A stretch of DNA of 64,000 bases, taken from the UHGV virus genome UHGV-1440165; one strand, 5' to 3'. The number at the start of each line of letters is the position of its first letter. Positions within the stretch are counted from its first letter, which is position 1. Source of the DNA: a virus. The position numbers and the translations under genes are program-made. Below the pieces are notes generated by a model, which saw only the letters and a program-made list of their open reading frames with translations, made no database searches and was not told the origin of the DNA. This document shows, piece by piece, positions 3,868-62,548 of this stretch.

Positions 3868-3875
3868 TATAAATA
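3868..3875 (+). promoter_or_regulatory. T4-type late promoter box TATAAATA (plus strand)
   Basis: Exact TATAAATA about 36 nt upstream of the ATG at 3911; RBS AGAGGAA lies between. Confidence 0.5.
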
Positions 3876-3910
3876 TCCCAAACTGGTTTTATAGAAAGAG
3901 GAATGAAACT

Positions 3911-4678
3911 ATGGCACCCCGCGCATATCGTTTCAGTCTCACCGCCCCGCAGATTGAGCAATTGCTCCTTTCTATCAATGATGCTATCAAGTCAGAAGAT
4001 ATCATCTATGATTATGCTACAGGTGGGACTGTTGGGCAAGTCGCAGCAGCGTCTGCCGTCAAGAACATGTGGCTCAAGCTCAATGAGATGGTGACAGGCC
4101 AAGGCCTCAAAGACGCCATCAACAGTGCTGGCGACAGCAACGTGTTCACCGACTATTATAAGTCTCTTCTGGATCGCGAAGGCTGGAAATTTATTGGCTC
4201 CCCAGCAGATATCCTGGCTCGAGACGATATCGACACCACGAACTTCACGGGCGGCGAAGTCATTCTACTTCAGAAGAACGCCTCAGGCAACCCTGAGTTC
4301 CAATACTGGAAGCGAACTCCCGTCGCGGGTGGTGACCCTACCTTCGCCTGGGCTTCGGTCTATGAAGGGAACTCCAACGACTCAACAATCGAAATCCCGG
4401 TGATCGGCACGAGCGTCCTCAAAGACATTCCCAAGGCTCTCTTCCATATGGTGGAGTTCCGAGTTCATGTCTATGACGAAACGCTGGGGCACTGGCAGGA
4501 TACAGACGGCAAGGTCGGTTATCGTGGTGAGGATCTGTTCTACAGCACGTACAATCATGTGCAGACCAAACCGCTCGCCACCATTGACTTCAGCCAAGAC
4601 ACAGACAGCATGAAGATCTCCGTGACTTCCCTGGAGCCGAATGTCAAATGCCATCTGTCGTTTATCGCTGGTTACTAA
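3911..4678 (+). CDS. Hypothetical late protein on plus strand
   Basis: ATG at 3911 with AGAGGAA RBS and upstream TATAAATA; 255 aa with protein-like composition. ORF track (3752..4678) begins at a non-ATG codon. Confidence 0.55.
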   Translation: MAPRAYRFSLTAPQIEQLLLSINDAIKSEDIIYDYATGGTVGQVAAASAVKNMWLKLNEMVTGQGLKDAINSAGDSNVFTDYYKSLLDREGWKFIGSPADILARDDIDTTNFTGGEVILLQKNASGNPEFQYWKRTPVAGGDPTFAWASVYEGNSNDSTIEIPVIGTSVLKDIPKALFHMVEFRVHVYDETLGHWQDTDGKVGYRGEDLFYSTYNHVQTKPLATIDFSQDTDSMKISVTSLEPNVKCHLSFIAGY

Positions 4679-7427: not shown

Positions 7428-7428
7428 G

Positions 7429-9111: not shown

Positions 9112-9444
9112 CTATTTTGAAACGCCGACAAAGTCCTGGGCAATTCCCCGACAATACATCAGGTCGGTCTTCGTTTGTGGGCTGTTTTCTGCCGCCGACA
9201 TCATCATTGGCAGGTCCAGCGCATTCTCTATCTGGTCAACGCTGAACAGGTCAAGGCGCTTCAGCTCTCCCTCGAAGTCGGACAGGAGAATAGACGTGTC
9301 TTTGTCGTCCGGATGGAATTGCTGATACGTCTCCATCCAGGCAGCGCATGTATTCAGTTTGGACGGCGGGGCGGCATGTACCCCGCCGATATAGGCAACC
9401 ACGACAGCCAGGATTAACAAGAGGATGATTTTACGAGTCATCAT
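9112..9444 (-). CDS. Small secreted or membrane-anchored protein
   Basis: 110 aa; N-terminal MMTRKIILLLILAVVVAYIGGVHA reads as a signal peptide or signal anchor. Confidence 0.5.
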   Translation of the reverse strand: MMTRKIILLLILAVVVAYIGGVHAAPPSKLNTCAAWMETYQQFHPDDKDTSILLSDFEGELKRLDLFSVDQIENALDLPMMMSAAENSPQTKTDLMYCRGIAQDFVGVSK

Positions 9445-15574: not shown

Positions 15575-17239
15575 TTAGATTTGTGAGGCCAGTTCTGCCA
15601 CCAGAGGAGCAGCACGAACACGCGCATCTTCCAGAGTCTGAGTGTTGAAGAACTTGCCATCACGGTACACCAGTTGGTGTTGGTTGTCGGCGTCTTGCAC
15701 CTGATCAAAGGTGATGCCGTCAACCAACACTAGTTTACCCTGAGAGTCTTTAATGACTTTAAGGAAACCACGCGCAGACTTTTTAGTCCCGCCTTTGTCG
15801 GTCTTCGGCTCTTTGAAGATCTCGCGGAATTCACCGTTCACCTTACCAGCCGTCGCTTTCACTGCCGTTCCAGTACTGTCACGGGTGTTCATCTGGTAGG
15901 TGTAGGAACCAATACCGAAGACCACGTTAATGGAAGCGAAGTTCCGGCCAGCCAGACGACCAAAGATCTGGTCTTCACGTGCCAATGTGATAGAGTCACC
16001 GTAGATCAGACCGATGTGATCGTCCAACAGGAAGTGGCCAGTCTCAGTTTGAGTACCGCCAAAGATCTCCCACAGGCGCTGAATAGAGCCGACTGCTTCA
16101 GAACGGCTGATGATATTACTGTCGTCTGCCATCAGAGAGTTGATCGTACCTTCGCCTGTGATCAGGTGATAGGTGTTCGTCTCTTCGATGTGGATGACTT
16201 CGGTGCTGCTGGACACGCCGCTGATGTTCAGCATAGCGCGGTCTTTGAACCCCTCGATGCGGTAGCCGCCGACGATGTGAACTGGGTCGCCAGAGTCAGG
16301 GCGGATCACGACTTTGCCGTTGCGTGCCATGATAATGTCTTTCAGGCGAGGGAGATAGTCGTCGATGACCTGCCAATAGTCCCACGCATCCGACACAATG
16401 CTGACGATGCCATCAGGATACACGTCCTGCACCAGGCGACGGAAGGTTTCGAATTCTCCATTCTTCGTACCCATGCACATCACGGCGTGTTCGGTGGCTG
16501 CAACGGAGCCAGCAACGACATAGTCTTCATCGATATCCGCGCCGTAATACTCTTCAACGAAGTCCAGGGCAGGGTTGGTGTCAGTGCCTTTGAAGAACAC
16601 CAGATGGCCAGAACCGGAAGACGCCGCGTCATGCCATCCGCTCATACCACGGAAGGAGAAGTCGTGGCCTTGGTAATCGATGAACCAATGGTCCGGTGAC
16701 ACGCCTGTGGCGATAGCGGCTTTCACCATCAGTGCCTTGTAATGCAGGGCGATGGTGGCGTTCGTCATGGGCTTCCAGATCTCAGAGCTGAACACAGTCT
16801 CCAGATAGTTGGTCAGCCAGTAGAACTCCGGCAAGGTGTTGAACATCACATACACCGGAACGCCATACGGGCACATGGTGCCTTCGGGTAGAGCACGGAC
16901 TTCGATAGGCAGATAACCGAGGTCATGCAGGGCTTCGATATGCTCTGTGCCAACACGACCTGGACCCAGTACTTTGTTCATGCGACGGGCATACTTCTTC
17001 AACACCTTGGCCTTCGGGCGCTGGAAGAACGCTTCGTCAAACAGTTCGTGGAACCAGGTCATGAAACCCTGGATGCCCCAGACCACCACGCCGTTCTTCG
17101 GCAGGTGAGAGTTGAATAATTTGTTGGAACGCGGAGTCCCGTTGGAGAACACCAGCTCACTACCTTCAGGGAACTGATAGATGTGCCCTGATTTGTAGAA
17201 GTCGATTGCATGAATTGGGTCTAAGTGGCGCATGCTCAT
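15575..17239 (-). CDS. nadV: Nicotinamide phosphoribosyltransferase-family protein (NadV/NAMPT-like)
   Basis: 554 aa; NAMPT-type N-terminus with the DFYKSGH motif; ATG start overlaps the stop of the upstream Prs-like gene by 4 nt. Confidence 0.8.
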   Translation of the reverse strand: MSMRHLDPIHAIDFYKSGHIYQFPEGSELVFSNGTPRSNKLFNSHLPKNGVVVWGIQGFMTWFHELFDEAFFQRPKAKVLKKYARRMNKVLGPGRVGTEHIEALHDLGYLPIEVRALPEGTMCPYGVPVYVMFNTLPEFYWLTNYLETVFSSEIWKPMTNATIALHYKALMVKAAIATGVSPDHWFIDYQGHDFSFRGMSGWHDAASSGSGHLVFFKGTDTNPALDFVEEYYGADIDEDYVVAGSVAATEHAVMCMGTKNGEFETFRRLVQDVYPDGIVSIVSDAWDYWQVIDDYLPRLKDIIMARNGKVVIRPDSGDPVHIVGGYRIEGFKDRAMLNISGVSSSTEVIHIEETNTYHLITGEGTINSLMADDSNIISRSEAVGSIQRLWEIFGGTQTETGHFLLDDHIGLIYGDSITLAREDQIFGRLAGRNFASINVVFGIGSYTYQMNTRDSTGTAVKATAGKVNGEFREIFKEPKTDKGGTKKSARGFLKVIKDSQGKLVLVDGITFDQVQDADNQHQLVYRDGKFFNTQTLEDARVRAAPLVAELASQI

Positions 17240-18090
17240 TTTACACGTCCTGTATTTTCAGTTTTGAAAGGAAGACCGTCGGCGGTGATGTTCTCCCACC
17301 AGACAGTGTCGGCATACACAGCATCGTAGATCCCGTCGAAAACAGAGAGACCTTTGCTGAAGATGCCATGGGTAACGAAGAGCGTCATGTGCTTAGGCTT
17401 GTGCTTCTGAAGCTCTTTACCCAGCTCAACAAACGTGCGCCCACCGTCGCAGATATCATCAACCACAACCAGATAGCGGTCTTTGATCAGTTCAGGGTTT
17501 GTAATACTCACCCCAATGATTTCACCAGTCTTGGTGTCACGGTTCTTGTGTCCGTAGACAACAGGAACGCCATCCAATGACAGGCTGAGGGTTTCGGTCT
17601 TCTTCGCCGCGCCGCCGTCAGGGGCTACCAGCACAGCATTGTTCCCACGGATGAACCAGCCCAGATACTGGCGCACGATGTGATCTTGTGGGACCACATG
17701 GACGTTGTTGATCAGGGAAGACACAACATGGCTGTGAGGGTCTTTGATCGCCACGCGGTCAAAGTTCATGTTGTTGATGAACTCAGCCGCCCACTTCACG
17801 GACAGAGGCTCGCCGAAGTCGCAATGGCGGTCCTGGCGAGCATACGGGAAGTAAGGGATATACGCATGGAAGGTAGTCAGACGGTCCACGTTACCCAGGC
17901 CGCGCACGGCGTTTACCAGAAGCGCCAGCTCAATGAAGTCGGCTGATGATTTGATGTGAGCATCAATCACCACGTTCTGGACGTGACCGACAGGGATGCC
18001 AGCCTTTTGGATCTTGATATGTTCCTCACCACCTGGGAAGGTGAAGTGCTTGTAGAACACATCTTGGTCGTTCAATTTCAAACGAAACAT
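17236..18090 (-). CDS. Ribose-phosphate pyrophosphokinase-family protein (Prs-like)
   Basis: 284 aa; type I phosphoribosyltransferase/PRPP-binding motif VVVDDICDGGRT; ATG start with GAGG RBS. Confidence 0.75.
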   Translation of the reverse strand: MFRLKLNDQDVFYKHFTFPGGEEHIKIQKAGIPVGHVQNVVIDAHIKSSADFIELALLVNAVRGLGNVDRLTTFHAYIPYFPYARQDRHCDFGEPLSVKWAAEFINNMNFDRVAIKDPHSHVVSSLINNVHVVPQDHIVRQYLGWFIRGNNAVLVAPDGGAAKKTETLSLSLDGVPVVYGHKNRDTKTGEIIGVSITNPELIKDRYLVVVDDICDGGRTFVELGKELQKHKPKHMTLFVTHGIFSKGLSVFDGIYDAVYADTVWWENITADGLPFKTENTGRVK

Positions 18091-24284: not shown

Positions 24285-24707
24285 CTACTTAGCCTTGCGC
24301 GGTTTCGCTTTGGCGTTCAACTCAGTACGTCCCATCTTCTCGCGTATCTCGGCCAGGACTTCCTGCGGCAAGAAACGGACGTACTCGGATGCCTTCTCCA
24401 TACTGATGTAGAAGTATTCGGACAGCATCTTCACATCAGGGTCTACAGCGCCCTTCTTAGACCATTTGTCATAACGTTTACGCGCCGGAATGGAATGAAA
24501 GGCGTATGACCATTGCATCCATGGAGTGATAGCATGCAGCTTATTCATCTGCTGTGCAAACACCAGAGTATCTTTGCTCTGGGCGAGACCACGCCGCGTC
24601 ATGAACGGGTCGAACCCCTTCTGCACTTCCGGATCATCGGTTTGCAGAAGGTTCTCTTTGCTGCTGTTCAGGGCAGACAGATAATCGAACAATCCAGGTG
24701 CGGCCAT
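24285..24707 (-). CDS. Clamp loader small subunit (gp62-like)
   Basis: 140 aa immediately downstream of the gp44-like gene; IPARKRYDKWSKK resembles T4 gp62 VPRGKRYGKWAKL. Confidence 0.55.
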   Translation of the reverse strand: MAAPGLFDYLSALNSSKENLLQTDDPEVQKGFDPFMTRRGLAQSKDTLVFAQQMNKLHAITPWMQWSYAFHSIPARKRYDKWSKKGAVDPDVKMLSEYFYISMEKASEYVRFLPQEVLAEIREKMGRTELNAKAKPRKAK

Positions 24708-24711: not shown

Positions 24712-25701
24712 TCACTTCCACTTGATGTTGAGCATGATGTTGGTCAGGAAGTACACGGCATGCAGCCATACGTCCCCAACCTGACGGTGCTCAATTTGAG
24801 ACTGACCGCAGACACAGACAAGGTCAGGGATAGACTCAGTCTGTACAGACATCGGCTTCTCTTTGTCCTGTGGTACACAGAACTGGAAGAAGCGGGAATA
24901 GAAGTCTTCGGTGATGTAGTTCTGATTGTCAGTCACCCACTGCTTCATGCCAGCCCAGTCATTGGCTTTCAGCATGCCGACCAGAGTGCCGAGGTCAGCC
25001 GCTTTCAACACAGCCAGGGCGCGTTCGTCAATCTTACCGAACGTGGTGACGTTGTCCTGCAGCGTACCCATGATGCGGCGGTTGTCGGGGAAATGGCGCT
25101 TAACGATAGCAGCCAGAACCTGTGGAACGAATTCAACGTTTTCGGCTCTGAGGATTTCAACGCAGCGCAGACAGAATTTACCCTGAACTTCCAGCGCTTC
25201 CTGCTCGTTCCAGATGAAGTCGATCTCACGGCAACGCGAGCGCAGAGGTTCGTTGACACGCTGCTTGGCGTTCGTGGTCAGGATAAAGGAGCAGTTCTTT
25301 GAGACCTTCTCTACGATACCCTTCAGGGATTCCTGCGCCGACATAGACAGGCGCTCAACTTCGTCGAGGATAACGACTTTGCGGCCGCCGAAGACGCTCA
25401 CGCCCGTAGAATACTGAATGACGCGATCACGGATAACATCGATGCTGTTGTCCAGGGATGCGTTGATAAACAGAGGTTGCTTACAACCGATCTCATTACA
25501 CACGGCCAGAGCAGTAGTGGTCTTGCCCGTACCCGGCTGAGGGGAGTAGAACAGCATGGACGGGATGTTGCCGCTGCCGCTGGTAATGTACCCATGGATT
25601 TTAGCGCGGACGTCCTGAGGGATGATGATCTCATCGAGGTTGTCAGGTCTGTACTTGTTCTCCCACGCATATTGGTCGGACACGATAGTGATATTGGACA
25701 T
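24712..25701 (-). CDS. Clamp loader large subunit (gp44-like, RFC-type AAA+ ATPase)
   Basis: Walker A PQPGTGKTT, Walker B VVILDEVE, SRC motif (RSRC); ATG overlaps the upstream stop (TAATG). Confidence 0.85.
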   Translation of the reverse strand: MSNITIVSDQYAWENKYRPDNLDEIIIPQDVRAKIHGYITSGSGNIPSMLFYSPQPGTGKTTTALAVCNEIGCKQPLFINASLDNSIDVIRDRVIQYSTGVSVFGGRKVVILDEVERLSMSAQESLKGIVEKVSKNCSFILTTNAKQRVNEPLRSRCREIDFIWNEQEALEVQGKFCLRCVEILRAENVEFVPQVLAAIVKRHFPDNRRIMGTLQDNVTTFGKIDERALAVLKAADLGTLVGMLKANDWAGMKQWVTDNQNYITEDFYSRFFQFCVPQDKEKPMSVQTESIPDLVCVCGQSQIEHRQVGDVWLHAVYFLTNIMLNIKWK

Positions 25702-26436: not shown

Positions 26437-27105
26437 TTACTCAATCTGCGCGCCGACGAAGTAATTGATCGTCGCGTCGGAGGACTGGAAGTTAACCATC
26501 TGCAGTTCAGCACAGGCACGGAGCGTGTAGTTGCCTTCGATCATCTTCAGGTTGGCAACGTCCAGAGGCATAACAAAGTCGCTCATGGCGGTTTCGCCCA
26601 GCTCTACGGTGTAGTTGTTGGAGTTGTCCAGGCCAGTAGTAGTCGCCACCATGCGGGTTTTGCCACCCTGAGCAACCAGGCGAACTGTTTTGTGGCCGAG
26701 GGTAGAACACGCACGAGTCAGTTCTTTCATCTTCTCTGGAGTGATGATCGCTTCAAAGTCGACGGAAGGCAGTTCGATGGTGTCAGCCGGGACCACAGTC
26801 AGTTCTTTGGCGGAACGCCAGAACTGCAGTTGAGAGCTTTCGCCTTTCAGCAGGATGTAGTCCTGATGGAATTCGGCTTTCGCGCCTTTAAAGGAAGGCA
26901 GACGCTGAATGGCCAGCAGCTTGGTCAGGTCCAGAATAGGGAATTCAAACGGGAAGTCTTCTTCGATCTGCGCAACGGCGATCACAGTAGAAGAATCGTT
27001 GATGCTGCGCAGCATTTTACCCGGTGTCAGAACGATAGAAGGGTTGATGGTCTCAAAGTTGGCCAGCAACTGAAGTGTACGTTCGGAGAGAGTGATCTCT
27101 TGCAT
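26437..27105 (-). CDS. Sliding clamp (gp45-like)
   Basis: 222 aa; N-terminus LQLLANFETINPSIVL resembles T4 gp45 ALLKNFATINSGIML; position upstream of clamp loader. Confidence 0.7.
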   Translation of the reverse strand: MQEITLSERTLQLLANFETINPSIVLTPGKMLRSINDSSTVIAVAQIEEDFPFEFPILDLTKLLAIQRLPSFKGAKAEFHQDYILLKGESSQLQFWRSAKELTVVPADTIELPSVDFEAIITPEKMKELTRACSTLGHKTVRLVAQGGKTRMVATTTGLDNSNNYTVELGETAMSDFVMPLDVANLKMIEGNYTLRACAELQMVNFQSSDATINYFVGAQIE

Positions 27106-29324: not shown

Positions 29325-29349
29325 ACAAAATCTCCCAAGATATATGGGA

Positions 29350-29356
29350 TATTTAG
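29350..29356 (-). promoter_or_regulatory. Late-promoter-like motif (minus strand CTAAATAT)
   Basis: CACTAAATATCCC about 26 nt upstream of the UvsW ATG. Confidence 0.4.
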
Positions 29357-32519: not shown

Positions 32520-32547
32520 AAGAAAATACCCCCATGGATGATGGGGG

Positions 32548-32554
32548 TATTTAG
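32548..32554 (-). promoter_or_regulatory. Late-promoter-like motif (CCCTAAATACCCCC)
   Basis: About 29 nt upstream of the 32519 start; embedded in a CCCCCA...TGGGGG inverted repeat. Confidence 0.45.
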
Positions 32555-32766
32555 GGATCAGGGTAGTTTGTAAACGAAGTTGGACCAGAACTTCTGAGCG
32601 AACTTCTTGGCATAGACCTTCCGGCTGACGTACTCGCCATCCTTCAGATCGTTGTATGTCTCGTGCGCTACTGCGGCAAGGAAGTACGCCGTGAAGATAT
32701 AGCAGAACAGATTGATGACAAACATGATGTATCTCCGCTGTGTGGACTCAAATTATTTATGACAGG

Positions 32767-38312: not shown

Positions 38313-38394
38313 TCCTTACATTGATATTCAGTTAAGTTGAAATTACTTAGTAGTTCAAAATCAAGCCCCCTTTCGAGGGCTGTGGCTGCTAAAA

Positions 38395-39300: not shown

Positions 39301-39307
39301 TATTTAG
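39301..39307 (-). promoter_or_regulatory. Late-promoter-like motif (CACTAAATACTG)
   Basis: About 28 nt upstream of the scaffold gene start. Confidence 0.45.
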
Positions 39308-39318: not shown

Positions 39319-39987
39319 TCAGCCCAGATGTTTCAATGCGATATCAAGGCGGCGCAGGAAGTCGTCTTCGAATTGAATATTGGTTTTCACCAATGAATCG
39401 ACCACCTGCCCCTTAATGTCTTTAGGAACCCAAATTCCTGAAGATTCATCAAGCTGCCATTCCACAGATTCGCTCACAGCCTTTACATAACAAACTTGTC
39501 CAGAAGGACGGTCGACTGCATCAACAGCAGTGAGCATGAAGCCAGGTTGAACGTCATCATAACCATTCACTGACTTGGTCTCACCAAGGCCACGTGTAGA
39601 CACGGCCAGGTTGAAGTCTGCTTCAGCCAGAGCACGAATGATCTGACCTTTCGGTGTATTTAGGATCCGCGCTCGACCGATAGCGTTGGTGCCTTCCCAG
39701 CGCATGGATTCGGTTTTGAGCGCAGCGTGTTCGATATCGGGGAAAGGATAATCCGGATGCTTGAGTTCACCGATTGCGCGACGATCCTGGATATACTCTT
39801 TGTCGTATGCTTCGACAGCAGGGATACCCACTTTCTGGAGATCGTAGTTGCGGCCATTACGGTTCACCTGGTTACACATCACGAATGGACCTTCGATGTA
39901 CATGGCTTTGCCGCCAGTAGCCGTGGCCGCTTCACCAATCTGAAGGTCTTTCCCTATCGCAGTGATCTCACGCAACAGTTTCATCAT
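39319..39987 (-). CDS. Prohead core protein/protease (gp21-like)
   Basis: 222 aa; position upstream of scaffold and capsid as in T4. Confidence 0.6.
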   Translation of the reverse strand: MMKLLREITAIGKDLQIGEAATATGGKAMYIEGPFVMCNQVNRNGRNYDLQKVGIPAVEAYDKEYIQDRRAIGELKHPDYPFPDIEHAALKTESMRWEGTNAIGRARILNTPKGQIIRALAEADFNLAVSTRGLGETKSVNGYDDVQPGFMLTAVDAVDRPSGQVCYVKAVSESVEWQLDESSGIWVPKDIKGQVVDSLVKTNIQFEDDFLRRLDIALKHLG

Positions 39988-40483: not shown

Positions 40484-40521
40484 GTTCGTATCCTCTAAAA
40501 TGTTTTCTATACTTAGTTGAA

Positions 40522-42840: not shown

Positions 42841-43554
42841 TTACACAATTCTATTTAGCTGCCAACCAGTCGTATTCAAACGTTCAATGGTCGCAGTTTT
42901 CCTATGATACACAGACGGCGGTGGAACTGGAATACCCTTGTCGATATAGTCATACAATGCTGAATATTTAAGCCCGAGTGTTTCTACATACTCGCGGCAA
43001 TTGCCATGGATGAAGTATTCTTCACCTGATGGAGAAATCAACTTGAACTTCTTGGCGTGTCCGTTGTTTTTGCCCTTCCGAATGCCAGTCTCCACACAAG
43101 TTTTACTGAATAAAGATTTGTCTTCATCTGACCATACTATGCCTGTACGGCAACTAACAATCTCGCCAGTCTTCCAACGCGGGTCATCACAACTGACAAG
43201 ACCCAAACTTTTCCCGGTGATGGGGTCTTTAGCTCCATGTTTCCCTATGAAAGCGGCTCCGTCTCCGCCTGTGGTCTTGTTGTACCCTTTCTGTAGTGAC
43301 ATATGGGTGCCATGTTGCTCGATTAGGATGATTTCTAAATCTTTGAGGTCTTCGGGGGTTTTGGTCTGGGCTATGACCTGGAATGAGAAAGACTCTTCAC
43401 CATATTTGCGTATAGCCTGATGAATGAAGAAATCAGAACCATTCTTGGCACTGTTACAGTGCTCCCACCAGCGATGGTTTGGGTCTCTGGCTGTTATCCC
43501 GATGTACGCTTTCTGATTTACGAGATTCGTGATTTTGTATACGCTTCCGATCAT
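42841..43554 (-). CDS. GIY-YIG homing endonuclease (freestanding)
   Basis: N-terminus VYKITNLVNQKAYIGIT...R...WEH with downstream conserved E/N is a classic GIY-YIG signature; inserted between sheath and tube genes. Confidence 0.7.
   Translation of the reverse strand: MIGSVYKITNLVNQKAYIGITARDPNHRWWEHCNSAKNGSDFFIHQAIRKYGEESFSFQVIAQTKTPEDLKDLEIILIEQHGTHMSLQKGYNKTTGGDGAAFIGKHGAKDPITGKSLGLVSCDDPRWKTGEIVSCRTGIVWSDEDKSLFSKTCVETGIRKGKNNGHAKKFKLISPSGEEYFIHGNCREYVETLGLKYSALYDYIDKGIPVPPPSVYHRKTATIERLNTTGWQLNRIV
42852..42858 (-). promoter_or_regulatory. Late-promoter-like motif (GCTAAATAGAA)
   Basis: About 32 nt upstream of the tail tube ATG, inside the 3-prime end of the GIY-YIG gene. Confidence 0.4.
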
Positions 43555-43634
43555 TTCGATGCTCTCTTAGTGAAATCGATCTATTGTAACTCGCAAGAGA
43601 TCATTGAAATGCCCTCCGGAGAGGGCATGTGTAT

Positions 43635-45572: not shown

Positions 45573-45579
45573 TATTTAG
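45573..45579 (-). promoter_or_regulatory. Late-promoter-like motif (CACTAAATATCTT)
   Basis: Between the terminase stop and the sheath gene, about 43 nt upstream of the sheath ATG. Confidence 0.45.
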
Positions 45580-49832: not shown

Positions 49833-49856
49833 ATCAATACCCTCAATTTTGAAGGT

Positions 49857-49863
49857 ATTTAGT
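49857..49863 (-). promoter_or_regulatory. Late-promoter-like motif (GACTAAATACCTT)
   Basis: About 25 nt upstream of the 49832 start. Confidence 0.45.
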
Positions 49864-49891
49864 CGAAGTTTATTCTTTTGAGGAATAGCTC

Positions 49892-50104
49892 ATGCAAGTG
49901 GAAGACATCAAAGAAACGCGCGATGGTCGCCGGGTTCGTATTATCTGTATTGATGCGAAGATTGGCGGTGGGGTTTACAATACTGTTGGGCTGGTGAAAG
50001 AACCTGATGGCACCGACTTCATTGAGTGGTGGAACATCACTGAAATGACAGAAGACGGTCTTGTGCGAGGCAGTGGGGACGGCAGTTTAGATCTCAAGCT
50101 GTAA
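49892..50104 (+). CDS. Small hypothetical protein on plus strand
   Basis: 70 aa, ATG with GAGGAA RBS; followed directly by a canonical intrinsic terminator. Confidence 0.45.
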   Translation: MQVEDIKETRDGRRVRIICIDAKIGGGVYNTVGLVKEPDGTDFIEWWNITEMTEDGLVRGSGDGSLDLKL

Positions 50105-50131
50105 AAGAAAGCCGGGGAAACCCGGCTTTTT
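50105..50131. terminator. Intrinsic terminator, bidirectional architecture
   Basis: AGCCGGG-GAAA-CCCGGCT followed by TTTTT on the plus strand and by a T-rich run on the minus strand. Confidence 0.65.
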
Positions 50132-50132
50132 G

Positions 50133-51445: not shown

Positions 51446-51496
51446 AATCTTATCCTCTAGGTTGTGGCGGGGTTGCCCCCGCCTTTACATTTCTAT

Positions 51497-54400
51497 TTAC
51501 GCCAGAGCAATCAGGCGGAAATCCTTGAACGATGGAGGAGCCACACGGTTGCCACGAACCAGCGCTCTCACCTTCACGGCAACGAACGGATTCGTCGCGC
51601 TCACAGTCTTGTCGTACTCGTACTCGAAGAATGTGGATCCATCGTTCACCAGAGGCGACAGAGGTGTCACGGTTTCCCATGCCACGCTATCCATATCTTG
51701 ACCTGCACGGAGCAGTTTGACCTGCACGGCCATGGTTGACTGCGACGGCAGCATTGCACCAAAGTATAGCTTAATGGTCGAACATGGGTTATCAAATCCG
51801 ACGTCTTTGGTGATGTAGCGGAACACGTCTTCAAATGGATCAACCCCGAAGGTGTTGAAGACCACTGTGAAGTCGTCTCCGTCAACCATTGGCGCAACGA
51901 AGTTGTTGGACTCACTGCGCGTCATGGTAGCCCGAACCTGGAAGTCGCCCACCTGACGATAGATGCCCTCTGTTGGGAGGTACACGTTCGTCTCGGATTC
52001 GAACTCAATCCAATCGGACATTGAATTGGAGGTCGCATCACGGTAGCGGTATTCCAGTTTTAGAATTGAACCTTCCAGAGCCGAGTTCGTGGCGCTGCCA
52101 TAGAACATATCGACCAGATAGTTCCCCAGGTACGAAGCGTCATCACCACCAATTTGTCCGCTGGAGGTAGCCGCCGCGCCCACATCGATGGTGAAGTTGC
52201 TGAACGCAGCATCAGTCACGACATGTGTTTTGTTCAGTTGCTCTGGAGTAAACCCACAGCCGCCTGTCAGGCCGGACAGGGTCACACTGTTGCCCGCAAC
52301 CAGACCGTGGCCAATCGCATCGATCACGATTGTTGAAGCGCCCGAGGTGCAGTTCAACTCATTCAGACCCAGAGGGCGAGGCTTCGGACCAGCTTTCACA
52401 TCGAAGGTGACGATGTTTGCACCAGCATTGAAGTTCGCGCGATACACACGGAATTTCAGGTCTGCCATCTGGTTTGGAGACCAGGTGCTTCCGTTTGAAG
52501 ACGTGAAGAACACGCCAGTGTACGGCTGCTTGGCGATATACTCGTTGGACAGAAGGTTCTTCTTGCCCATCTCTGCGATATATGCGTTGTAGTCCTGAGT
52601 GTTCGCCAGCAGAACGATAGCGAATTCAGTACCAGCCTGCAGATACACAGGGTAATCGAACGTGAACTTCGTAGCCGTCTCAGAGTTGTTGGAGACATTC
52701 ACCTGGTCCGGAGTCAGCGTCTTACGAGTGATCACGCTGTTAGACGGCAGACCGTTGGACATCTCGCGGATCTCCAGTGTGATCGGCACATCACGCGATT
52801 TCGTGGACAGGAAGACTTCCACACCTTCGATGTACTCACCACCGACACTGCTCTGCACCATGAAGGACTGAGCAATCGGGTCTTTCCACTTCTTGATCAG
52901 TTCAGTGTTAGAAGTGGTTTCAGTACTGGAAGACGCGGTGTAACCCAGAACACGGGTGTTCAGATAAGTCTTCTGGATACCCTGTTTCTTGCCGAAAGAT
53001 TTGTGAACAATTTCGGCATTGGTCAGAGTGTCATCGGCAGACTTGCTGTCAACCGGGCTATCCGTCAAACGGAACACGTTATCGCCAGTGTTGAAGCGGT
53101 CTGTTTCTGTCACAGGCACACGGAACACACCTTTGACAGTACCGCTGGCATCTGTCATCAGGGGATCGCCGAAGTTACCAGACTCAGGCTTACAGAACGC
53201 ACTGACAGCACGATTTGAGAAGAACGCATACATCTGGGTGAACGGACGCAGGCCGCTGCCTTCAAACGCGATGTCAGACTGACGCATATACGGGATGACC
53301 TGAGTCTCCACAATCTGCTCGCCAGTCATGGTCGTGGTTGTTGTATCAGTGTACGTGTAAGTGATCACATCACGGGTAGACACTGTGGTGCGGTAGCGGT
53401 AGCCCCACTTGCCGACCTGGGTCTGGTATTCGGTTGTAGAAGAAGTCTTCCACGTACCGTAAACGGAACCCGGCTGGATAGCCCCACGAGTGTTGATCGT
53501 TTCGTTGATCACACGCGGTGCGACATAATAGTTCTCAAACCAGTAGTCGGTGGTCGGGTTCAGTTTGATGTAGCCTTCCCAGTTGAACACGGCGTATGGG
53601 TTCACGTTGATGGTGGTAGTCGCATATTCCTGATTCACAGAGATTTCAGGAGTGTAACGACACACAACCATTCCATCCATAACCTTATCCCAGTTCACTG
53701 GAGTCAGGTCAACGGCATTCTGCTGAGTGAACGGGCGTAGACGACCATTGTCGGTATCAACAGAGCCCATCCAGTCGGAAGACAGATCGTCAATCAGACG
53801 GAAGTCTTTGAACGGGTCGGCGGCGATACCATTTTTGAATCGTGGGTTGCCAGTGATAGGGTCGAACACCTGCTGGGTCATGGCTGATGATTCCAGCTGA
53901 GACAGGGAGGTGTAATATTCGACGTTAGAAATACGCGTCTCCAGCTTCCCGATATCACGCATCGTGTAGCGGCGGTTGTCGACAGTGCGAATCTGGATAT
54001 CGTCGATGTCAGCCGTATACGGCGGGATCAGCATCTCATACAAGCGCATGGCGTTGTCTGGGATAGCCGGGGCTGCCAGGTTGTTGGAGCTGATACCACG
54101 AGCGATGTTGAACACGCCGTTTTCTGCCAGGTACACAGCATCAATTCGAGGCAGATAATACTCTGTGTCCAGGATTACAGCCGTGTTCGGGCGCACCATA
54201 TCGGTATCTGAAGTCCCGTTGGCAATCTTCGGACGGAAATCCAAAGAATCTGCCAGGCTGTACACGGTCCCAGAAGTGCGGGATGTGTAGGTCGGGATAT
54301 CCTGGTAGTCGATAGAGGAGTACGAGTCCGCGGAGAAGAAGTCCCCGGCGCTGTGAGCGAAGTATGAGTACACCACTGTGAAAGTGCCTGAGATTGCCCC

Positions 54401-56353: not shown

Positions 56354-56360
56354 ATATTTA
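56354..56360 (-). promoter_or_regulatory. Late-promoter-like motif (TACTAAATATCTC)
   Basis: About 34 nt upstream of the giant ORF start. Confidence 0.45.
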
Positions 56361-56416
56361 GTATACAGCCAACCGAGGAATAGAAAGAAATAAGCCCTCC
56401 GAAGAGGGCTTAGTTT

Positions 56417-57058: not shown

Positions 57059-59497
57059 TTACCAAGACCAAAGATTACCATTGGTATCACAGTTTCCAGT
57101 AGCAACAACCTTAGTCAGACCAGAACCACCCCTAGTCTGGAAGATGTTACCAGTAAGGTTAACAAGTGAGGTGTTTCCATAAGATATATTAATATCTTCA
57201 GAATACCCATAAACTATATTAGCTGACACAGTTGCAATTGCACGGCTATCCGAGTTTGTATTATCCAACCTGATACCATACTGACCAGGTGATACTGATG
57301 CATGTACAATCTGGTTGTTACTGATATTAACGTTACCAACGCTGCGAATATTACCAACAGTAAGAGCGGTATATGCCCCAGGAGTTGGTGCAGTAAACAG
57401 CATTTGATTGCCATTAAAGGAAAACCACCGCAAGCCTTGGGTTGTTGTGGTATTGGTAGTTGTTGTAACTTGGATGTTTTCAAACTGGTTATTATCAATC
57501 TTAACAGTTGCACAGGATTTAATGTGCAGAATTGCCTGCTTATTAAATGAAGTAAACTTGTTATTGACAAAGCTAACTGAAGTTAGTACATCTTGGTCTT
57601 GTTCATAATAAATACCACCAATTGATGTATACTCTGATGGGTTATTAAGAACAGCCGTGTTACCATCAAAGATAACACCCTTGCAAAGACCAATAGCAAC
57701 TAAGCAACCATTTAGTGCATCCTTGGTGTTATTACCTACAGCTACAGAATCAGTACAACTCTCAAAGTCAATGCACACATCTTTGCAGCCATCAACAGCG
57801 TTGCCAGTGATAGTAACCCTATCACCCATAGCACCCCAAATGCCACCTACGGCATTACGTACAGTGTTACCAGAGATTGTTACGTCATTACACTTACGAG
57901 GCTTAGTCATGTCATAGCCCTCATCTGCTTTAAGTGCATCTCCACCAACGAACTGGATACCTTCCTTGTGACCATCAATGTAATTACCGCTAATACGCGC
58001 CATCTTTGCATATGCAGTATAGATTGCAGCTGGTCTGAATGGCGCCCCAAGCACACCATCACCACTACCATAAGACTGACAGTTTACAACTTCAATGTTA
58101 GTACAGTAATCTGCATCCGTTGTAATAAGTGGATATGCACTACCAGCACCAAATCCAATATCATGTGCAATCATGGGGTTTGGACACTTACGAGACTTAG
58201 TAGAGAATAGCGCCATTATCACAGAGACACAGTTACGCATTGAAACATTGTTACAGGAGACTAAGTTAACAGCTGGTGCAAGTGATACACTAGATGCGGC
58301 ATCAAACCTAAGACCTTTAAAAACTATGTTAGATTTCTCAATACCTGTAAATACAGCTTGCCCCTCTTTATCAAGCGTCACCTTGATAATGGCATTATTA
58401 CCACTATGTATCTGGTTAGATTCGAGCATAAGTACACCAGAGTCAACAAGATAAGTACCAGCTGGGTAATCTATCTTGCGTGCACCAGATAATATTGCAG
58501 ATTGAAGGGCTGCGGTATCATTTGTAACACCATCACCGATAGCCCCAAAGTCACGAATGCTGATCGTCTCCAGTAGTTTGTCATGAACTGTACGTGAGAC
58601 GGCACTTGCTAACGGCTGTTTCATCCCTATCAGGGCATCACCTAATACAACGTTAGTAGTGTCCACAAGGTCGTCGCGTAGGTTAGGGTCAGTTTGCGGA
58701 ATCCAATCCGCAGTACCGACCGGGTTAGCCCCTGCGGCTATGACGTGCGGCAACGTCCCGGCCCATGAGTACCACGTCTTACTCACAGGGTCATACACTA
58801 CCTTATTACGGTCGTTAACACCGAGTGTACCTCCAGTATAGAATGTAAACCCAGCGTCAGTGTAGCCATTTTCAATCGCCCAATTAAGTTTTAATTTAAC
58901 CAAGTCAGTATCAATATCATTAAGTTCTTCCTGTACAGTTTGACCGGAAGACGTACCAATCAGACTTGCGCCTCCATCGGAAGAGAGCGCCAGGTAATTC
59001 TGCTTAATGGACATTTCTGCCACGACCCAAACTCCAGCCGCAGGCGAACCTGTGAGGAAACTCACAACTCCTGTTGTGCTGTTGTAGCTGTAGTTGACGC
59101 CAGGAACCTGGAACCGCCCATCGACGTACAGGGACTGCACCCCATAAGATGTGAAGTCTGGGGTGAATGAGGTCTCGTTGCCAACGGCCTGGAATTTGTA
59201 GATGCGGATCCCGTTTTCATAATCTTCTGGGGACAGGATCTTGTCAAACAGACAGTACACTACATCATCAGCCTCCAGCGCTCGACCGAGGTTGACTGTG
59301 TTGCCATCGATTTCGTAATTGTCTACGGGAACCTGAACTCCACCATTGATGGTGATGAAGCCTGTAACGGGATAGAACGGGAGGGAGATAAACGTCTCTC
59401 CACCCGTTGCTGTGTAAGTGTATGGAATCTGGTGCGGGGCTGTTACAACCGCTCCAAAGATGCTCTCGACGTTTCTGGTCATTTGAAGATACCCCAT
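57059..59497 (-). CDS. Tailspike protein with pectate-lyase-type right-handed beta-helix (putative depolymerase)
   Basis: 812 aa; IRDFGAIGDGVTNDTAALQSAI (about 58493..58558) is the hallmark N-terminal motif of pectate-lyase-superfamily beta-helices; N/T/G-rich repeats downstream. Confidence 0.7.
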   Translation of the reverse strand: MGYLQMTRNVESIFGAVVTAPHQIPYTYTATGGETFISLPFYPVTGFITINGGVQVPVDNYEIDGNTVNLGRALEADDVVYCLFDKILSPEDYENGIRIYKFQAVGNETSFTPDFTSYGVQSLYVDGRFQVPGVNYSYNSTTGVVSFLTGSPAAGVWVVAEMSIKQNYLALSSDGGASLIGTSSGQTVQEELNDIDTDLVKLKLNWAIENGYTDAGFTFYTGGTLGVNDRNKVVYDPVSKTWYSWAGTLPHVIAAGANPVGTADWIPQTDPNLRDDLVDTTNVVLGDALIGMKQPLASAVSRTVHDKLLETISIRDFGAIGDGVTNDTAALQSAILSGARKIDYPAGTYLVDSGVLMLESNQIHSGNNAIIKVTLDKEGQAVFTGIEKSNIVFKGLRFDAASSVSLAPAVNLVSCNNVSMRNCVSVIMALFSTKSRKCPNPMIAHDIGFGAGSAYPLITTDADYCTNIEVVNCQSYGSGDGVLGAPFRPAAIYTAYAKMARISGNYIDGHKEGIQFVGGDALKADEGYDMTKPRKCNDVTISGNTVRNAVGGIWGAMGDRVTITGNAVDGCKDVCIDFESCTDSVAVGNNTKDALNGCLVAIGLCKGVIFDGNTAVLNNPSEYTSIGGIYYEQDQDVLTSVSFVNNKFTSFNKQAILHIKSCATVKIDNNQFENIQVTTTTNTTTTQGLRWFSFNGNQMLFTAPTPGAYTALTVGNIRSVGNVNISNNQIVHASVSPGQYGIRLDNTNSDSRAIATVSANIVYGYSEDINISYGNTSLVNLTGNIFQTRGGSGLTKVVATGNCDTNGNLWSW

Positions 59498-59518
59498 AGA
59501 GGATTTGCCAATATGGGG

Positions 59519-59525
59519 TATTTAG
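59519..59525 (-). promoter_or_regulatory. Late-promoter-like motif (GACTAAATACCCC)
   Basis: About 22 nt upstream of the 59497 start. Confidence 0.45.
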
Positions 59526-59549: not shown

Positions 59550-62504
59550 TCAAATTATGCAATAACTAATAACCCCAATTGCTGTAGATGCGGCATCATT
59601 TGCATTCATTGCAATCATCACATTAAGTCCAGAACCTACGTTCTCTCGGCTCAGTATTACTTCACCTTCTCGCCCAAAATCGCTTTTTATAACAACAGGC
59701 GAGGATGGGTTATTTACATTGTTGATGGTTATTGAAGCGCTTACTTGTGTGTTTCCTGATGCAGCATTTGTCGGTACGGACACAATGTTATATTTAATGT
59801 AACATTGATGTCCATATGGAACGTTGAAAAAACCAACGTTCTTAGAGACATCACCAGTAACAGCTGTGTTTAATGTAACCTTCCCATCTTCTTTGAAGCC
59901 ATTGTAACCTTTCCAATCTGATTCAATCATACTGAAAGGAACTGGTCCGAGTTTTCCATCAGTACCAGAGTAACAGTTACTGCTAGAGAAGATGAACTGG
60001 CGTGAGTCAAATTCAGCAGGTCCAGTAGGTGCCTGGATATATAGAACCTTATTTTTAGTTTGAGCGAATCCATTACCAGTAATTAACAGTGGGAATGGGA
60101 AACCTCCACTTAGTGCTGTTGTTGATTTCTGCACCCAGATATCATATCCATTGAACAGGAAGCAGTTACCAATAATGGTCTTAGAGCCTTCTGAGGCCGG
60201 ATTGCCCACAGATGCCGGGATAGTGAAGTTAACCCCAATAGGGTTATTTTCAATCTGTGAACCACTCATATAGAAACTGGTATTCCACCCCGCAACAATA
60301 CCCACTGTTGTGTTTTCTGAAATGGTGCAGCCAATAATCGACTGAGAGCCAGCAAAGGAAAACTCGCTGAGTGATAAGCCACGACCGTTAAGAACGAACT
60401 CACACCCAAAGAAACGGTTTTGGTCAGAACCACCTTCGGCAGAGCCATCTACCTTATCGATGTTACAGCCCGTGGAGCACCACAGGGCGTGCACGTTATA
60501 GAAGTTGTTGAGGTAAACAACACCCGCTAACTTAATACCAAAATCAAAATAACGGATATGAAGACCACTGAAGTTGTTCTCACGAACATGGAAAACTCCG
60601 GCATTCACCGTTTCGTCAACAGATACCCCACAGTACCCATTAACGTTAAGATCTGGCCCCTCTAACATCAAATCCTGTATTTTTACACCAGTTATCCCAT
60701 AATCGAATCGATATCCATCTAGCACAGGCACCAGTTTAAAAATGTCATTATGACCCACTGCCTTAAAGCATGGCATCTGTTTACGAGCTACGGTGGATCC
60801 GCCGTCACCAACAATTTTGATTGGCTTGTTGATGGTGATCGCAGATGAAATCTTATACATAGACTTTGGTGTAGGCACGATGAGCGTACCACCCCACGGG
60901 GTAGCATCAACAGCAGCCTGGGTTGCTGCCGTATCATCAGTACTACCATCACCAGTGGCAAACCAACCAAGGTTAACAGCACCAACTGTTTGGCGTTTCC
61001 AACGTAAACCTGTAGTGTCTACTAAGATGGTCCCCCCATTATCAGCAGAAGTCGCATCAGTGGGGTCGGATTCAAAGATACCAAATCCGCCATCGTATTT
61101 ATTAACCTTTCCTAGACTGTAAACTCGACCATTAACTGGATTTGTATTGGCACGAACATCTGCATAATTGGCAGCACCAATCAAACCAAACCCCAATTTT
61201 CCTGCCAGATTTTTTCTCAACTCGGTTGCCGAGTCGGCAACATCCAAAAGAGTGACTGTCGTGTTCGTACTGCCAACGACATATGTCAGCTGATTACCAG
61301 AGACACTCACAATAGATGCCGTGGTTGGGATGCCCGCTGGGAGTCCCCAAGATTTCTGCGCGACCACGTCATAGATGACGGTCTTACCATTCAGCTTGGT
61401 GATCGTATCAGAACTGAGGATCACCTGAGAGACAGGCACGTTAGCTGCCCGAGCAACTTCATTTGGGGTACGGTCAATCTGGTTGTACAGGGTCGGATCA
61501 CCGTTGATGACAACAACCACTTCATCACCCGCATCCAGCTCATCCGCAAGTGTGATCAGCTTCGTCGTGGAATTATACTGGAACCCAAGATTCTTTTGCT
61601 GGCGTGTGCCGTTGATAAAGATCTCAGACACTTCTTCTGCGTCGACGTCCAGTGTAATTGTTGTCTCGCCGCCTACCGCCGAGCCAGAGTTGTACACCCA
61701 AGTGATGACAGTACCGCCGCCGGAACCACTACCGCCTGCTCCGAGTTGGATAGGGACATACTGGATGATCTGCAATTCTGAACCAGAGGTCAGAGCTGGG
61801 CTGAAATTAACATTGTAGCCATCCAGGGAATACTTGGAATCCAGCAGGCGCTTGCCATCGACGTAGACATCAACGATAGATGGCTGGGTCGCCAGCGTCA
61901 CCTGAGTCGTGTCGGTGGCCAGGGTTGTGGTGAAGATTGTACGGCTGTACACGCGCCCTTGCCCCAGACCAACTCCAGCAGTGACGATCCAACCACGAGC
62001 ATCACCAGACCAGGTGAAAGTGGCAGACACGCTATCCGTGGATAATGTCATCGGTTCAGTAGAACCATAGATGGCATAACCGTTCGGATCGATGGTGAGA
62101 GGATAGACGGAGAATTTACCGTACAGGTCGCATACAGTAACAGAGTCGCCAACGCGCGTAGGATCCGGAAACACCACCGTAGAGACGCCGGAAGAGTTAT
62201 CCACCAGATAGCCCCGCCCTTCAGCCAAAGTTGCCGTAGAGGCATGAGGAAGCACTTCCCAGCGGATACCTCCACCACCCAGAGGTAGCCAACCCCCGTT
62301 CTCGTAATAACCTTCGAATTCGTCGGACGCAGAATTGTATCGAACAGCGGAAGGAAGACCATCCACAGCATCACCTTCAGGGACGGTCATCACCGCATCC
62401 GGTCCATGTTCGATGATACCAGTGTTGAGGACACCAGCCAGTTTAGATTGCTCAGCAGTTTCAAGCCCGAGAGGGAAAATCGGCTGTGTTGGTTTGTTAG
62501 CCAT
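59550..62504 (-). CDS. Tailspike protein with pectate-lyase-type beta-helix (second, distinct)
   Basis: 984 aa; VNLGWFATGDGSTDDTAATQAAVDA motif mid-protein; long N-terminal region preceding the beta-helix. Confidence 0.7.
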   Translation of the reverse strand: MANKPTQPIFPLGLETAEQSKLAGVLNTGIIEHGPDAVMTVPEGDAVDGLPSAVRYNSASDEFEGYYENGGWLPLGGGGIRWEVLPHASTATLAEGRGYLVDNSSGVSTVVFPDPTRVGDSVTVCDLYGKFSVYPLTIDPNGYAIYGSTEPMTLSTDSVSATFTWSGDARGWIVTAGVGLGQGRVYSRTIFTTTLATDTTQVTLATQPSIVDVYVDGKRLLDSKYSLDGYNVNFSPALTSGSELQIIQYVPIQLGAGGSGSGGGTVITWVYNSGSAVGGETTITLDVDAEEVSEIFINGTRQQKNLGFQYNSTTKLITLADELDAGDEVVVVINGDPTLYNQIDRTPNEVARAANVPVSQVILSSDTITKLNGKTVIYDVVAQKSWGLPAGIPTTASIVSVSGNQLTYVVGSTNTTVTLLDVADSATELRKNLAGKLGFGLIGAANYADVRANTNPVNGRVYSLGKVNKYDGGFGIFESDPTDATSADNGGTILVDTTGLRWKRQTVGAVNLGWFATGDGSTDDTAATQAAVDATPWGGTLIVPTPKSMYKISSAITINKPIKIVGDGGSTVARKQMPCFKAVGHNDIFKLVPVLDGYRFDYGITGVKIQDLMLEGPDLNVNGYCGVSVDETVNAGVFHVRENNFSGLHIRYFDFGIKLAGVVYLNNFYNVHALWCSTGCNIDKVDGSAEGGSDQNRFFGCEFVLNGRGLSLSEFSFAGSQSIIGCTISENTTVGIVAGWNTSFYMSGSQIENNPIGVNFTIPASVGNPASEGSKTIIGNCFLFNGYDIWVQKSTTALSGGFPFPLLITGNGFAQTKNKVLYIQAPTGPAEFDSRQFIFSSSNCYSGTDGKLGPVPFSMIESDWKGYNGFKEDGKVTLNTAVTGDVSKNVGFFNVPYGHQCYIKYNIVSVPTNAASGNTQVSASITINNVNNPSSPVVIKSDFGREGEVILSRENVGSGLNVMIAMNANDAASTAIGVISYCII

Positions 62505-62541
62505 TTCAAATACCCCTAAATGTGTTCATGTCATCTAGGGG

Positions 62542-62548
62542 TATTTAG
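62542..62548 (-). promoter_or_regulatory. Late-promoter-like motif (AACTAAATACCCC)
   Basis: About 38 nt upstream of the 62504 start; overlaps an ACCCCTA...TAGGGGT inverted repeat. Confidence 0.45.

Follow-up and report, generated by a model that had tools for sequence, protein, structure and literature searches.

A stretch of 64,000 nucleotides (nt) from the virus genome UHGV-1440165, referred to below in its entirety as the window, carries the short sequence CTAAATA in front of many of its structural genes. The question raised by this locus is whether the sequence is the late promoter of the phage and, if so, how it is recognized. An initial annotation had regarded it as a variant of TATAAATA, the late promoter of phage T4. 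This reading is supported by the occurrence of a single -10-like element on the gene strand, by the virion genes that follow it, by the orthology of its positions and by gp55 and gp45 genes in the same window, and it proves to be already known. The motif is very probably the late promoter of this Ackermannviridae phage, a -10-like element that has no -35 partner, and initiation itself is a prediction from sequence. In the window, the motif heads at least 14 transcription units, which include those of tailspikes, a VrlC-like protein, neck, sheath, tube, scaffold and major capsid proteins, UvsW and RegA.

The phage is a ViI/Ag3-like member of the Ackermannviridae (Aglimvirinae, Agtrevirus). Over a 5.2-kilobase (kb) stretch that runs from the portal gene to the major capsid gene, its identity is 97.6% to Salmonella phage pSal-SNUABM-02 and 77-92% to Ag3, LIMEstone1, CBA120, ViI and Klebsiella Taipeiviruses. 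The window has a G+C content of 50% and a non-coding share of 6.0%, and the minus strand codes for nearly all of its genes. Gene starts were carried over from the pSal-SNUABM-02 annotation by using tblastn.

CTAAATA occurs ten times in the window, always on the minus strand. The expected number is 3.1, and 100 dinucleotide shuffles of the window yielded a maximum of 8 copies, so that none reached ten. Seven of the ten copies are wholly intergenic (p = 3e-7 for seven or more in a window that is 6% non-coding), two are in the final codons of the preceding gene, and one falls within the gp21 protease gene. The other nine all end 23-42 nt before an ATG, and the genes that follow them encode a 984-amino-acid hypothetical protein, a tailspike, a VrlC-like protein of 1607 amino acids, neck protein gp13, sheath protein gp18, tube protein gp19, scaffold protein gp22, the structural protein of orf139 and UvsW. 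The extended form CTAAATAYYYY has 7 copies against 0.24 expected, and the exact sequence CTAAATACCCC is present in 3 copies. Among the early genes at positions 1-24000, CTAAATA is absent from both strands. The initial placement of the motif upstream of structural genes and UvsW is therefore borne out, with coordinates correct within 1 nt; the copy at 39657 was absent from that list.

The copy at 62542..62548 (this and the following sites are on the minus strand) is the predicted late promoter of the 984-amino-acid gene (start 62504), with 37 nt between its end and the ATG. The predicted late promoter of the tailspike gene (start 59482) is at 59519..59525, and its leader is the same in Ag3, CBA120 and LIMEstone1. 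Those of the VrlC-like structural gene (start 56320) and of neck gene gp13 (start 49832) are at 56355..56361 and 49856..49862. The one predicted for tail sheath gene gp18 (45573..45579; start 45530) is found in all Ackermannviridae loci examined, including those of Aeromonas and Vibrio phages, and the one predicted for tail tube gene gp19 (42852..42858; start 42820) lies within the 3' end of a GIY-YIG homing endonuclease gene. Further predicted late promoters are at 39301..39307 for scaffold gene gp22 (start 39273), at 32548..32554 for structural gene orf139 (start 32519) and at 29350..29356 for uvsW (start 29324), where the motif overlaps the stop codon of the exonuclease gene. In T4, uvsW is a late gene, which fits a late promoter in front of uvsW in the window.

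Variants of the motif are found at comparable distances from other genes. On the minus strand, CTAAGTA occurs 26 nt before a 56-amino-acid gene (40510..40516; start 40483; gene 124), 40 nt before major capsid gene gp23 (38344..38350; start 38303) and 30 nt before regA (24286..24292; start 24255), and ATAAATA occurs 28 nt before the 55-amino-acid gene 138 (32754..32760; start 32725). The site orthologous to that of gene 124 is CTAAATA in Kuttervirus, Taipeivirus and Miltonvirus, the capsid variant is conserved in four genera, the regA variant is conserved in Ag3, LIMEstone1, CBA120 and KpS110, and the gene 138 site is marked as a late promoter in the LIMEstone1 record. The exact sequence TATAAATA is present once, on the plus strand at 3868..3875, 35 nt before the ATG of a 255-amino-acid gene (start 3911), just as initially described; 0.48 copies are expected, and the count alone is not significant. 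Orthologous sites in five other genera read ATAAATA in Limestonevirus, Taipeivirus and Miltonvirus, ATAAGTA in PhiSH19 and CTAAATA in Vibrio phage K369. Because it is conserved before the same plus-strand gene across genera, the copy at 3868 is a true, ATAAATA-type member of the motif family.

The remaining CTAAATA copy (39657..39663, minus strand) is within the gp21 protease gene (39319-39987), where it spells Leu-Asn-Thr codons with the rare leucine codon CTA, and its status is uncertain. It is kept in Ag3, LIMEstone1 and Vibrio phage K369 and is absent from KpS110 and from CBA120, which has TTAAATA there. The copy could serve as an extra late promoter within the gene and so raise the expression of gp22 and gp23, or it could merely be a set of conserved codons.

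The neck region shows a rearrangement of its own. Relatives have an opposite-strand cassette of one or two small genes between two neck genes, and in them the CTAAATA promoter and its leader are duplicated, with one copy orphaned. The duplicates are at 84388 and 85161 in pSal-SNUABM-02 and at 9431 and 10205 in the LIMEstone1 locus L008 (reverse complement). The neck region of the window (49833-50132) contains one opposite-strand gene (49892-50104) and one promoter copy.

For a genome-wide test, the complete pSal-SNUABM-02 genome (161,337 base pairs) was assembled. It contains 25 CTAA[A/G]TA sites, about 19 of which lie 24-42 nt (all within 15-55 nt) upstream of same-strand starts that are preceded by a ribosome binding site (RBS), compared with 0.7 expected (p of about 6e-25). 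The named downstream genes are mostly virion genes, namely those of baseplate proteins gp48 and gp6, tailspikes, neck, sheath, tube, scaffold and capsid, and several others are hypothetical; gp48, gp6 and several of the hypothetical genes are outside the window. No CTAARTA is present in the early blocks at 1-23 kb, 24.5-59 kb, 112-136 kb and 142-161 kb, which encode nucleotide metabolism enzymes, rII, DNA polymerase, topoisomerase, ribonucleotide reductase and primase. The motif is thus enriched upstream of genes both in the window and genome-wide.

The same arrangement extends across the family. In eight Ackermannviridae loci, drawn from Agtrevirus, Limestonevirus, Kuttervirus, Taipeivirus, Miltonvirus, Tedavirus and one Vibrio phage, the gene strand carries 69 copies of CTAAATA and the opposite strand 4, and the copies are at orthologous gene starts. 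Orthologous positions are found in all of these groups, including Ag3, CBA120, LIMEstone1, KpS110 and phiMAM1, and additional loci taken from IMG/VR agree. The motif is retained in non-coding spacers whose flanks have diverged.

A matrix of the 14 window sites has A at -13 in nine, C at -12 in 12, an invariant T-A-A, A or G at -8 (G in three) and then an invariant T-A. Downstream of the motif, positions -5 to -1 are pyrimidines and the predicted +1 is A at 10 of 14 sites. Upstream of -13, the matrix reveals no conservation, and neither a -35-like nor a TG-extended element. The element predicted from these sequences reads a-[C>A,T]-T-A-A-[A>G]-T-A; next come about 5 nt rich in pyrimidines, and an A marks the predicted start 6 nt past the motif.

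The first base of this element had been described as a consistent change to C instead of T. C is indeed dominant in the window, but alignment to TATAAATA (-13 to -6) indicates that it stands for the A of T4 at -12 and not for a T. The exact T4 consensus is not the rule here, being present in a single copy, and C replaces A at -12 in 12 of the 14 sites. Nor is the change consistent, because C is a preference and orthologous sites show C, T or A at this position. At the orf139 site, -12 is C in Aglimvirinae, T in Taipeivirus and some Kuttervirus phages, and A in other Kuttervirus phages and Miltonvirus. The major capsid site reads CTAAGTA in Agtrevirus, Limestonevirus, Kuttervirus and Taipeivirus and CTAAATA in phiMAM1 and L032, and the gp13 site is CTAAATA in most genera and CTAAGTA in phiMAM1. 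The exchange of A and G at -8 and of C, T and A at -12 is therefore as expected for a degenerate recognition element, and not for a coding or repeat artefact. The replacement of T4's A by C at -12, the degeneracy of -12 and -8, the CTAAGTA of the capsid gene and the inclusion of the site at 3868 are modest refinements, and they are still predictions.

The late-promoter reading is itself a known prediction, because the motif has already been given for phage Aeh1, in the LIMEstone1 record and in the EspM4VN paper. CTAAATA, starting at -12, was derived bioinformatically as the late promoter of Aeromonas phage Aeh1 by Nolan et al. 2006 (PMC1524935), who placed the C in the same registration and found it to be rare at -12 in other T4-like phages. 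The paper on the Dickeya phage LIMEstone1 reported 33 predicted late promoters, and the corresponding record (HE600015) labels TAAATA as 'putative late promoter' at sites orthologous to those of uvsW, orf129/orf139, orf130/138, gp22, gp18, the neck gene, the VrlC-like gene and the tailspike gene. Some of these features are mis-registered by a few nt, and in the stretch of the record examined no late promoter is marked before gp23, gene 124 or regA. Of the two 'unique regulatory motifs' that the EspM4VN paper gives for ViI-like phages, one is CTAAATAcCcc, which the earlier Ag3 and CBA120 papers had not identified. The published descriptions of CTAAATAcCcc examined here contain neither a mechanism for the 'cCcc' nor CTAAGTA sites. 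The source of CTAAATAcCcc is reportedly Adriaenssens et al. 2012 (Arch Virol, 'Viunalikevirus').

The element resembles the T4 late promoter TATAAATA in its TAAATA core, in the absence of a -35 element, in its location upstream of virion genes and uvsW and in its predicted start at an A located 6 nt downstream. It differs in having mostly A at -13 (T in T4), C at -12 in most sites (A in T4) and a tolerance for G at -8. The 7-mer of Aeh1, with C at -12, is identical; however, Aeh1 belongs to the Straboviridae, and no gp55 substitution is common to Aeh1 and the window. The late promoter of cyanomyoviruses, NATAAATA, is likewise a -10-type element of the T4 superfamily with a relaxed first position, but cyanophages keep A at -12. 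The CTAAATAcCcc of Ackermannviridae, including LIMEstone1, is identical as a motif and occupies the same orthologous gene starts, and the window phage belongs to this family.

The window also encodes the factor that would be expected to read such an element. The gene at 2598..3326 (minus strand), which had been annotated as that of a gp55-like sigma factor, matches PHROG 234 'late sigma transcription factor' (E = 9e-51), and it adjoins gp47 and gp46, as gene 55 does in T4. Its identity is assigned because of this match and of multiple alignments made through intermediate gp55 proteins; against T4 gp55 itself, the protein is about 18% identical and 57 amino acids longer. The gene at 26437..27105 (minus strand) is 100% identical to the annotated sliding clamp (gp45) gene of pSal-SNUABM-02, and in T4 the gp45 clamp is the activator of late transcription. 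A gp33-like coactivator (Trans_coact protein) is annotated in pSal-SNUABM-02 outside the window. With gp55 and gp45 in the window and the gp33-like protein in the 97.6% identical genome, the late-transcription gene set is present. The motif would be read by the core RNA polymerase of the host, equipped with the phage gp55-like sigma factor and assisted, as in T4, by the gp33-like coactivator and the gp45 clamp. We infer that transcription starts at the motif, late in infection and in a gp55-dependent manner.

In the T4 late transcription complex, as resolved by cryo-electron microscopy (cryo-EM), the non-template bases at -12, -9 and -8 are flipped into pockets of gp55, and A(-12) stacks on Y97. 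The same study found residues N13, L54, R57, F86, H95, Y97 and T99 of gp55 to be needed. When the window protein is aligned through the gp55 proteins of Aeh1, PX29, KVP40-like phages, a cyanophage, Cr30 and Moby, residues Y10, P33, M71, F86, N93 and F106 are invariant. The seven T4 pocket residues correspond by alignment to N, M, R, F, F, W and T in the window, to D, I, R, F, F, Y and T in Vibrio phage K369 and to N, F, H, F, H, Y and S in Aeh1. The window protein thus has the substitutions L54M, H95F and Y97W, and Aeh1 has L54F and R57H with the T4-like NPHAYI(S/T) kept. From these alignments, the gp55 scaffold appears conserved, and the residue predicted to stack on the -12 base is Trp in the window. 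No substitution is common to the phages with C at -12 (Aeh1 and Ackermannviridae), and the promoter contacts leave the C unexplained. The motif bears on the way in which a strongly diverged gp55 handles C where T4 gp55 places adenine in a pocket.

The C-terminus of the window gp55 (2598-2700, minus strand) has an acidic extension of about 30 amino acids (…DQDFGNTQFDLDENEGETE) beyond the region that aligns with SLDFLYEAND, the clamp-binding tail of T4 gp55. The extension is missing from the Vibrio phage homologue.

Some of the predicted promoters are joined to RNA hairpins, also on the minus strand, and the 14 leaders were scored against shuffled controls. The hairpin of the 984-amino-acid gene (62507..62547) has a 5' arm composed of the 3' part of the motif and CCCCUAGAUG and a 3' arm composed of the RBS AGGGG and UAUUU; its energy is -21 kcal/mol (z = -6.6), and 0 of 200 shuffles folded as well. 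The tailspike hairpin AUACCCCAUA...UAUGGGGUAU (59489..59521; -16.3 kcal/mol, z = -4.0) extends over the RBS, as does the gp13 hairpin AUACCUUCAA-AAUU-GAGGGUAU (49836..49859; RBS GAGGG; -11.5 kcal/mol, z = -4.35). The orf139 hairpin AAAUACCCCCAU-CAUCC-AUGGGGGUAUUU (32524..32552; -17.2 kcal/mol, z = -3.6) includes the RBS, is terminator-like and is followed by UCUU and the AUG. At uvsW (29328..29354), UCCCA-N7-UGGGA followed by GAUUUUGU lies over the RBS GGGAG and is terminator-like in a scan, with a z of only -1.0. When the motif is part of the RNA, the leaders of the first four genes thus fold far beyond shuffles (z from -3.6 to -6.6). In the common layout, the AAATA of the motif and the C-rich bases that follow make up the 5' arm, and the RBS (GGGG, GAGGG or GGGAG) and UAUUU make up the 3' arm, located 3-9 nt before the AUG.

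Complementarity between the 8 nt after the motif and the RBS region is higher for a site's own gene. Among the 13 minus-strand sites, its mean is -5.5 kcal/mol with the site's own gene and -2.9 kcal/mol with other sites (permutation p = 0.0002), and the test has a similar outcome in CBA120 and KpS110, which share orthologous sites. Without the 5' arm, which is missing from RNA begun at the predicted +1, most of the folding energy is gone; the four strongest sites lose 11-20 kcal/mol. In orthologues, the tailspike and orf139 leaders have constant stems and variable loops, and the orf139 hairpin of 10 distinct relatives has 100% of its cells paired. The UCCCA/UGGGA stem of uvsW becomes CUCCA/UGGGG in Kuttervirus, with pairing kept. 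The same architecture with other stems is found at non-orthologous sites, as TTAAATAccctcaaga...tcttgagggtattttt-ATG before the VrlC-like gene of Aeromonas phage A8-29 and as CTAAATAccccatac...gtgtggggtat before gene 094 of pSal-SNUABM-02.

The hairpins of orf139 and uvsW are each located where early-type genes give way to a late-type gene. Small early-type genes are clustered upstream of orf139, and uvsY-exo, behind an early-type TTCTAA-N14-TATAAT promoter, is upstream of uvsW; read-through transcripts are therefore plausible only. The U-run UAUUUUCUU follows the orf139 hairpin, but pairs in part with the AAATA of the motif, and the U-runs at the hairpins of the 984-amino-acid, tailspike and gp13 genes are weak. 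Where a fused hairpin is absent, a separate terminator-like hairpin is often found directly upstream of the promoter; this hairpin is at 56391-56412 for the VrlC-like gene and at 38364-38381 for gp23.

The leaders of the capsid gene (38300-38353) and gene 138 (32722-32763), both on the minus strand, fold worse than nearly all shuffles (z = +1.7 and +1.4). Their poor folding suggests selection for open translation-initiation regions.

A plausible function for the fused hairpins is to gate RNA that arrives from upstream, and we consider the chances roughly even that AAATA and the C-rich bases form the 5' arm of an RBS-holding hairpin with this role at four or five sites. RNA reading in from upstream would contain the whole hairpin and would be terminated, or have its RBS occluded, or both. 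RNA begun at the late promoter would be made without the 5' arm and would be translated freely. The pairing would also account for the 'cCcc' tail of the published CTAAATAcCcc. A broader proposal, toward which we lean a little less than halfway, is that Ackermannviridae late promoters are fused at about one-third of sites to a family-wide 'late-only gate' hairpin for structural genes and uvsW, which would explain the 'cCcc', and that the gp55 of this family would be permissive both at -12 (C, A or T) and at -8 (A or G), with a conserved G variant driving the major capsid gene.

A device of this type is known in T4. According to Uzan and Miller 2010 (PMC3014915), hairpins of T4 e, soc, 49 and I-TevI and of Aeh1 mobE sequester the RBS, with the late promoter in the DNA of the 5' strand, and T4 e, soc, 49 and I-TevI are translated from late transcripts only. 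The window hairpins are alike in having the late promoter in the DNA of the 5' arm and the RBS in the 3' arm, and their late transcripts are predicted to be without the 5' arm. They differ in that the AAATA of the promoter is in the stem and a U-run follows, which makes the window hairpins also terminator-like, and in that they would be used at structural genes and uvsW, not at lysis or homing-endonuclease genes.

Several observations weigh against these interpretations. Mapped 5' ends, transcriptomes or timing data for Ackermannviridae were not found in the literature searched. Several late-type genes, among them gp3, portal gp20, gp14, gp15 and the terminase genes, have no recognizable copy of the motif and would therefore need co-transcription with neighbours or weaker variants. 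The window gp55 has no PDB hit (phmmer) and no Pfam family, and its BLASTP match to T4 gp55 is not significant. A G at -8 is conserved before the most highly expressed gene, that of the major capsid protein, and is unexpected because the A at -8 of T4 sits in a specific pocket. As for the hairpins, nine of the 14 leaders have no structure beyond that of shuffled controls, and a simple terminator scan of the motif-linked hairpins flags that of uvsW alone. Covariation in the orf139 hairpin, for which sampling is best, is not significant, since 10 of 12 pairs are invariant, one compensatory change is present and 89 of 500 shuffles are equal. The complementarity of post-motif bases and RBS is not significant in phiMAM1, L032, Vibrio phage K369 and Aeromonas phage A8-29, so that the enterobacterial genera, which have orthologous sites in common, show the hairpin theme most strongly.

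Hidden variants of the motif were considered for the gp3, portal and terminase genes and were rejected, as the upstream regions are without a conserved TAARTA.

The hairpins raise the alternative that the motif chiefly represents the upstream A-rich flank and 5' arm of gene-separating hairpins, either intrinsic terminators or structures for RNA stability or processing, and that its likeness to the T4 promoter is incidental. At five sites, AAATA and CCCC pair with GGGG and UAUUU and a U-rich run follows, the terminator scan flags the uvsW hairpin, and the LIMEstone1 record marks a terminator on the orf139-type hairpin. Against such a role, nine of the 14 motif sites have no significant hairpin. 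Moreover, the terminators of the VrlC-like gene and gp23 are separate from the motif and upstream of it, other terminators in the window have no motif, and what stays invariant is TAAATA, set at a fixed spacing from the start codon, and not the stem. We judge this alternative highly improbable. That the recurrence reflects chance, base composition or a side effect of the codons and stop codons with which genes end has practically no probability, even though copies overlap stop codons (exonuclease/uvsW and gp62/regA) and the gp21 copy is read as Leu-Asn codons; the copy-number and placement statistics given above for the window and for pSal-SNUABM-02 refute it, and the motif is conserved in the very spacers whose flanks diverge.

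The element could instead be a -10 sequence for the host sigma-70 holoenzyme or for another phage-modified form of that holoenzyme, which would remove gp55 and T4-style late control from the explanation. TAAATA is A/T-rich and loosely resembles a -10 hexamer, and the gp55 homologue is very diverged, with H95F, Y97W and L54M among the residues that contact the promoter. However, sites lack any conserved upstream element of the -35 or TG-extended type, and the sigma-70-type interpretation was rejected for want of a conserved -35 element. The sigma-70-like promoters of ViI-like phages differ in sequence (TTCAAT-N14-TATAAT) and precede early genes, whereas CTAAATA is absent from early regions and is mostly at morphogenesis genes. 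The same CTAAATA was also derived independently for the late genes of Aeh1, which has a clear gp55. A sigma-70-type promoter is accordingly highly improbable, and recognition by gp55 remains the preferred reading.

Nothing here overturns current understanding. The results provide a rule for annotating late promoters in Ackermannviridae, namely [C/A/T]TAA[A/G]TA, about five pyrimidine-rich bases and an A at +1, located 23-42 nt before an ATG. Phages of this family are widely used in therapy and biocontrol against Salmonella, E. coli O157, Klebsiella and Dickeya. If the proposed gating is true, the hairpins would represent the 'late-only translation' device of T4 e and soc generalized to structural genes and uvsW in another phage family, and they would be useful for engineering strictly late expression of payloads.

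The other ViI-like motif, TTCAAT-N14-TATAAT, was found in the window with at most one mismatch six times on the gene strand and once on the opposite strand. The gene-strand copies (minus strand) are at 43608, 34985, 26437, 22889, 21591 and 3512, and five of the six are before early-type or homing-endonuclease genes. The motif never coincides with CTAARTA.

An early-type module is found on the minus strand upstream of starts 26357, 21496, 12025 and 11466, and similar modules are at 12682, 13126 and 8091. Each consists of a sigma-70-like -10 sequence, a G+C-rich hairpin GGGCGGGG...CCCCGCCC located 3-5 nt later, a conserved (A)TTTGAA(A/C) and then the RBS. The hairpins could be 5'-terminal stabilizers of the mRNA or terminators of the preceding gene.

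A further G+C-rich hairpin, GGCGGGGGCAACCCCGCC, is found at 51446-51500 (minus strand), between the VrlC-like gene and an 82-amino-acid gene (start 51445). It has no U-run and is preceded by [A/G]TAA[A/G]TA, which overlaps a stop codon. Its position is conserved across genera with quite different stems (GGUGGGCGUAAAGCCCACC, GAGGGGUAUAGAAUUCUAUACCCC and GGGGCGGUACGCUGCCCC), and it has the appearance of a genuine RNA or terminator structure that has undergone compensatory change.

Homing-endonuclease-type genes break the conserved order of late and replication genes at 42841-43554, 35403-36875 and 25701-26357 (minus strand). They are a GIY-YIG gene between the sheath and tube genes, a DUF559 gene after the capsid gene and a GIY-YIG-like open reading frame that adjoins gp44. 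The region at 15575-18090 (minus strand) is an indel hotspot. It contains open reading frames of 554 and 284 amino acids that have no counterpart there in pSal-SNUABM-02, and Ag3 has a nicotinamide phosphoribosyltransferase gene in this region.

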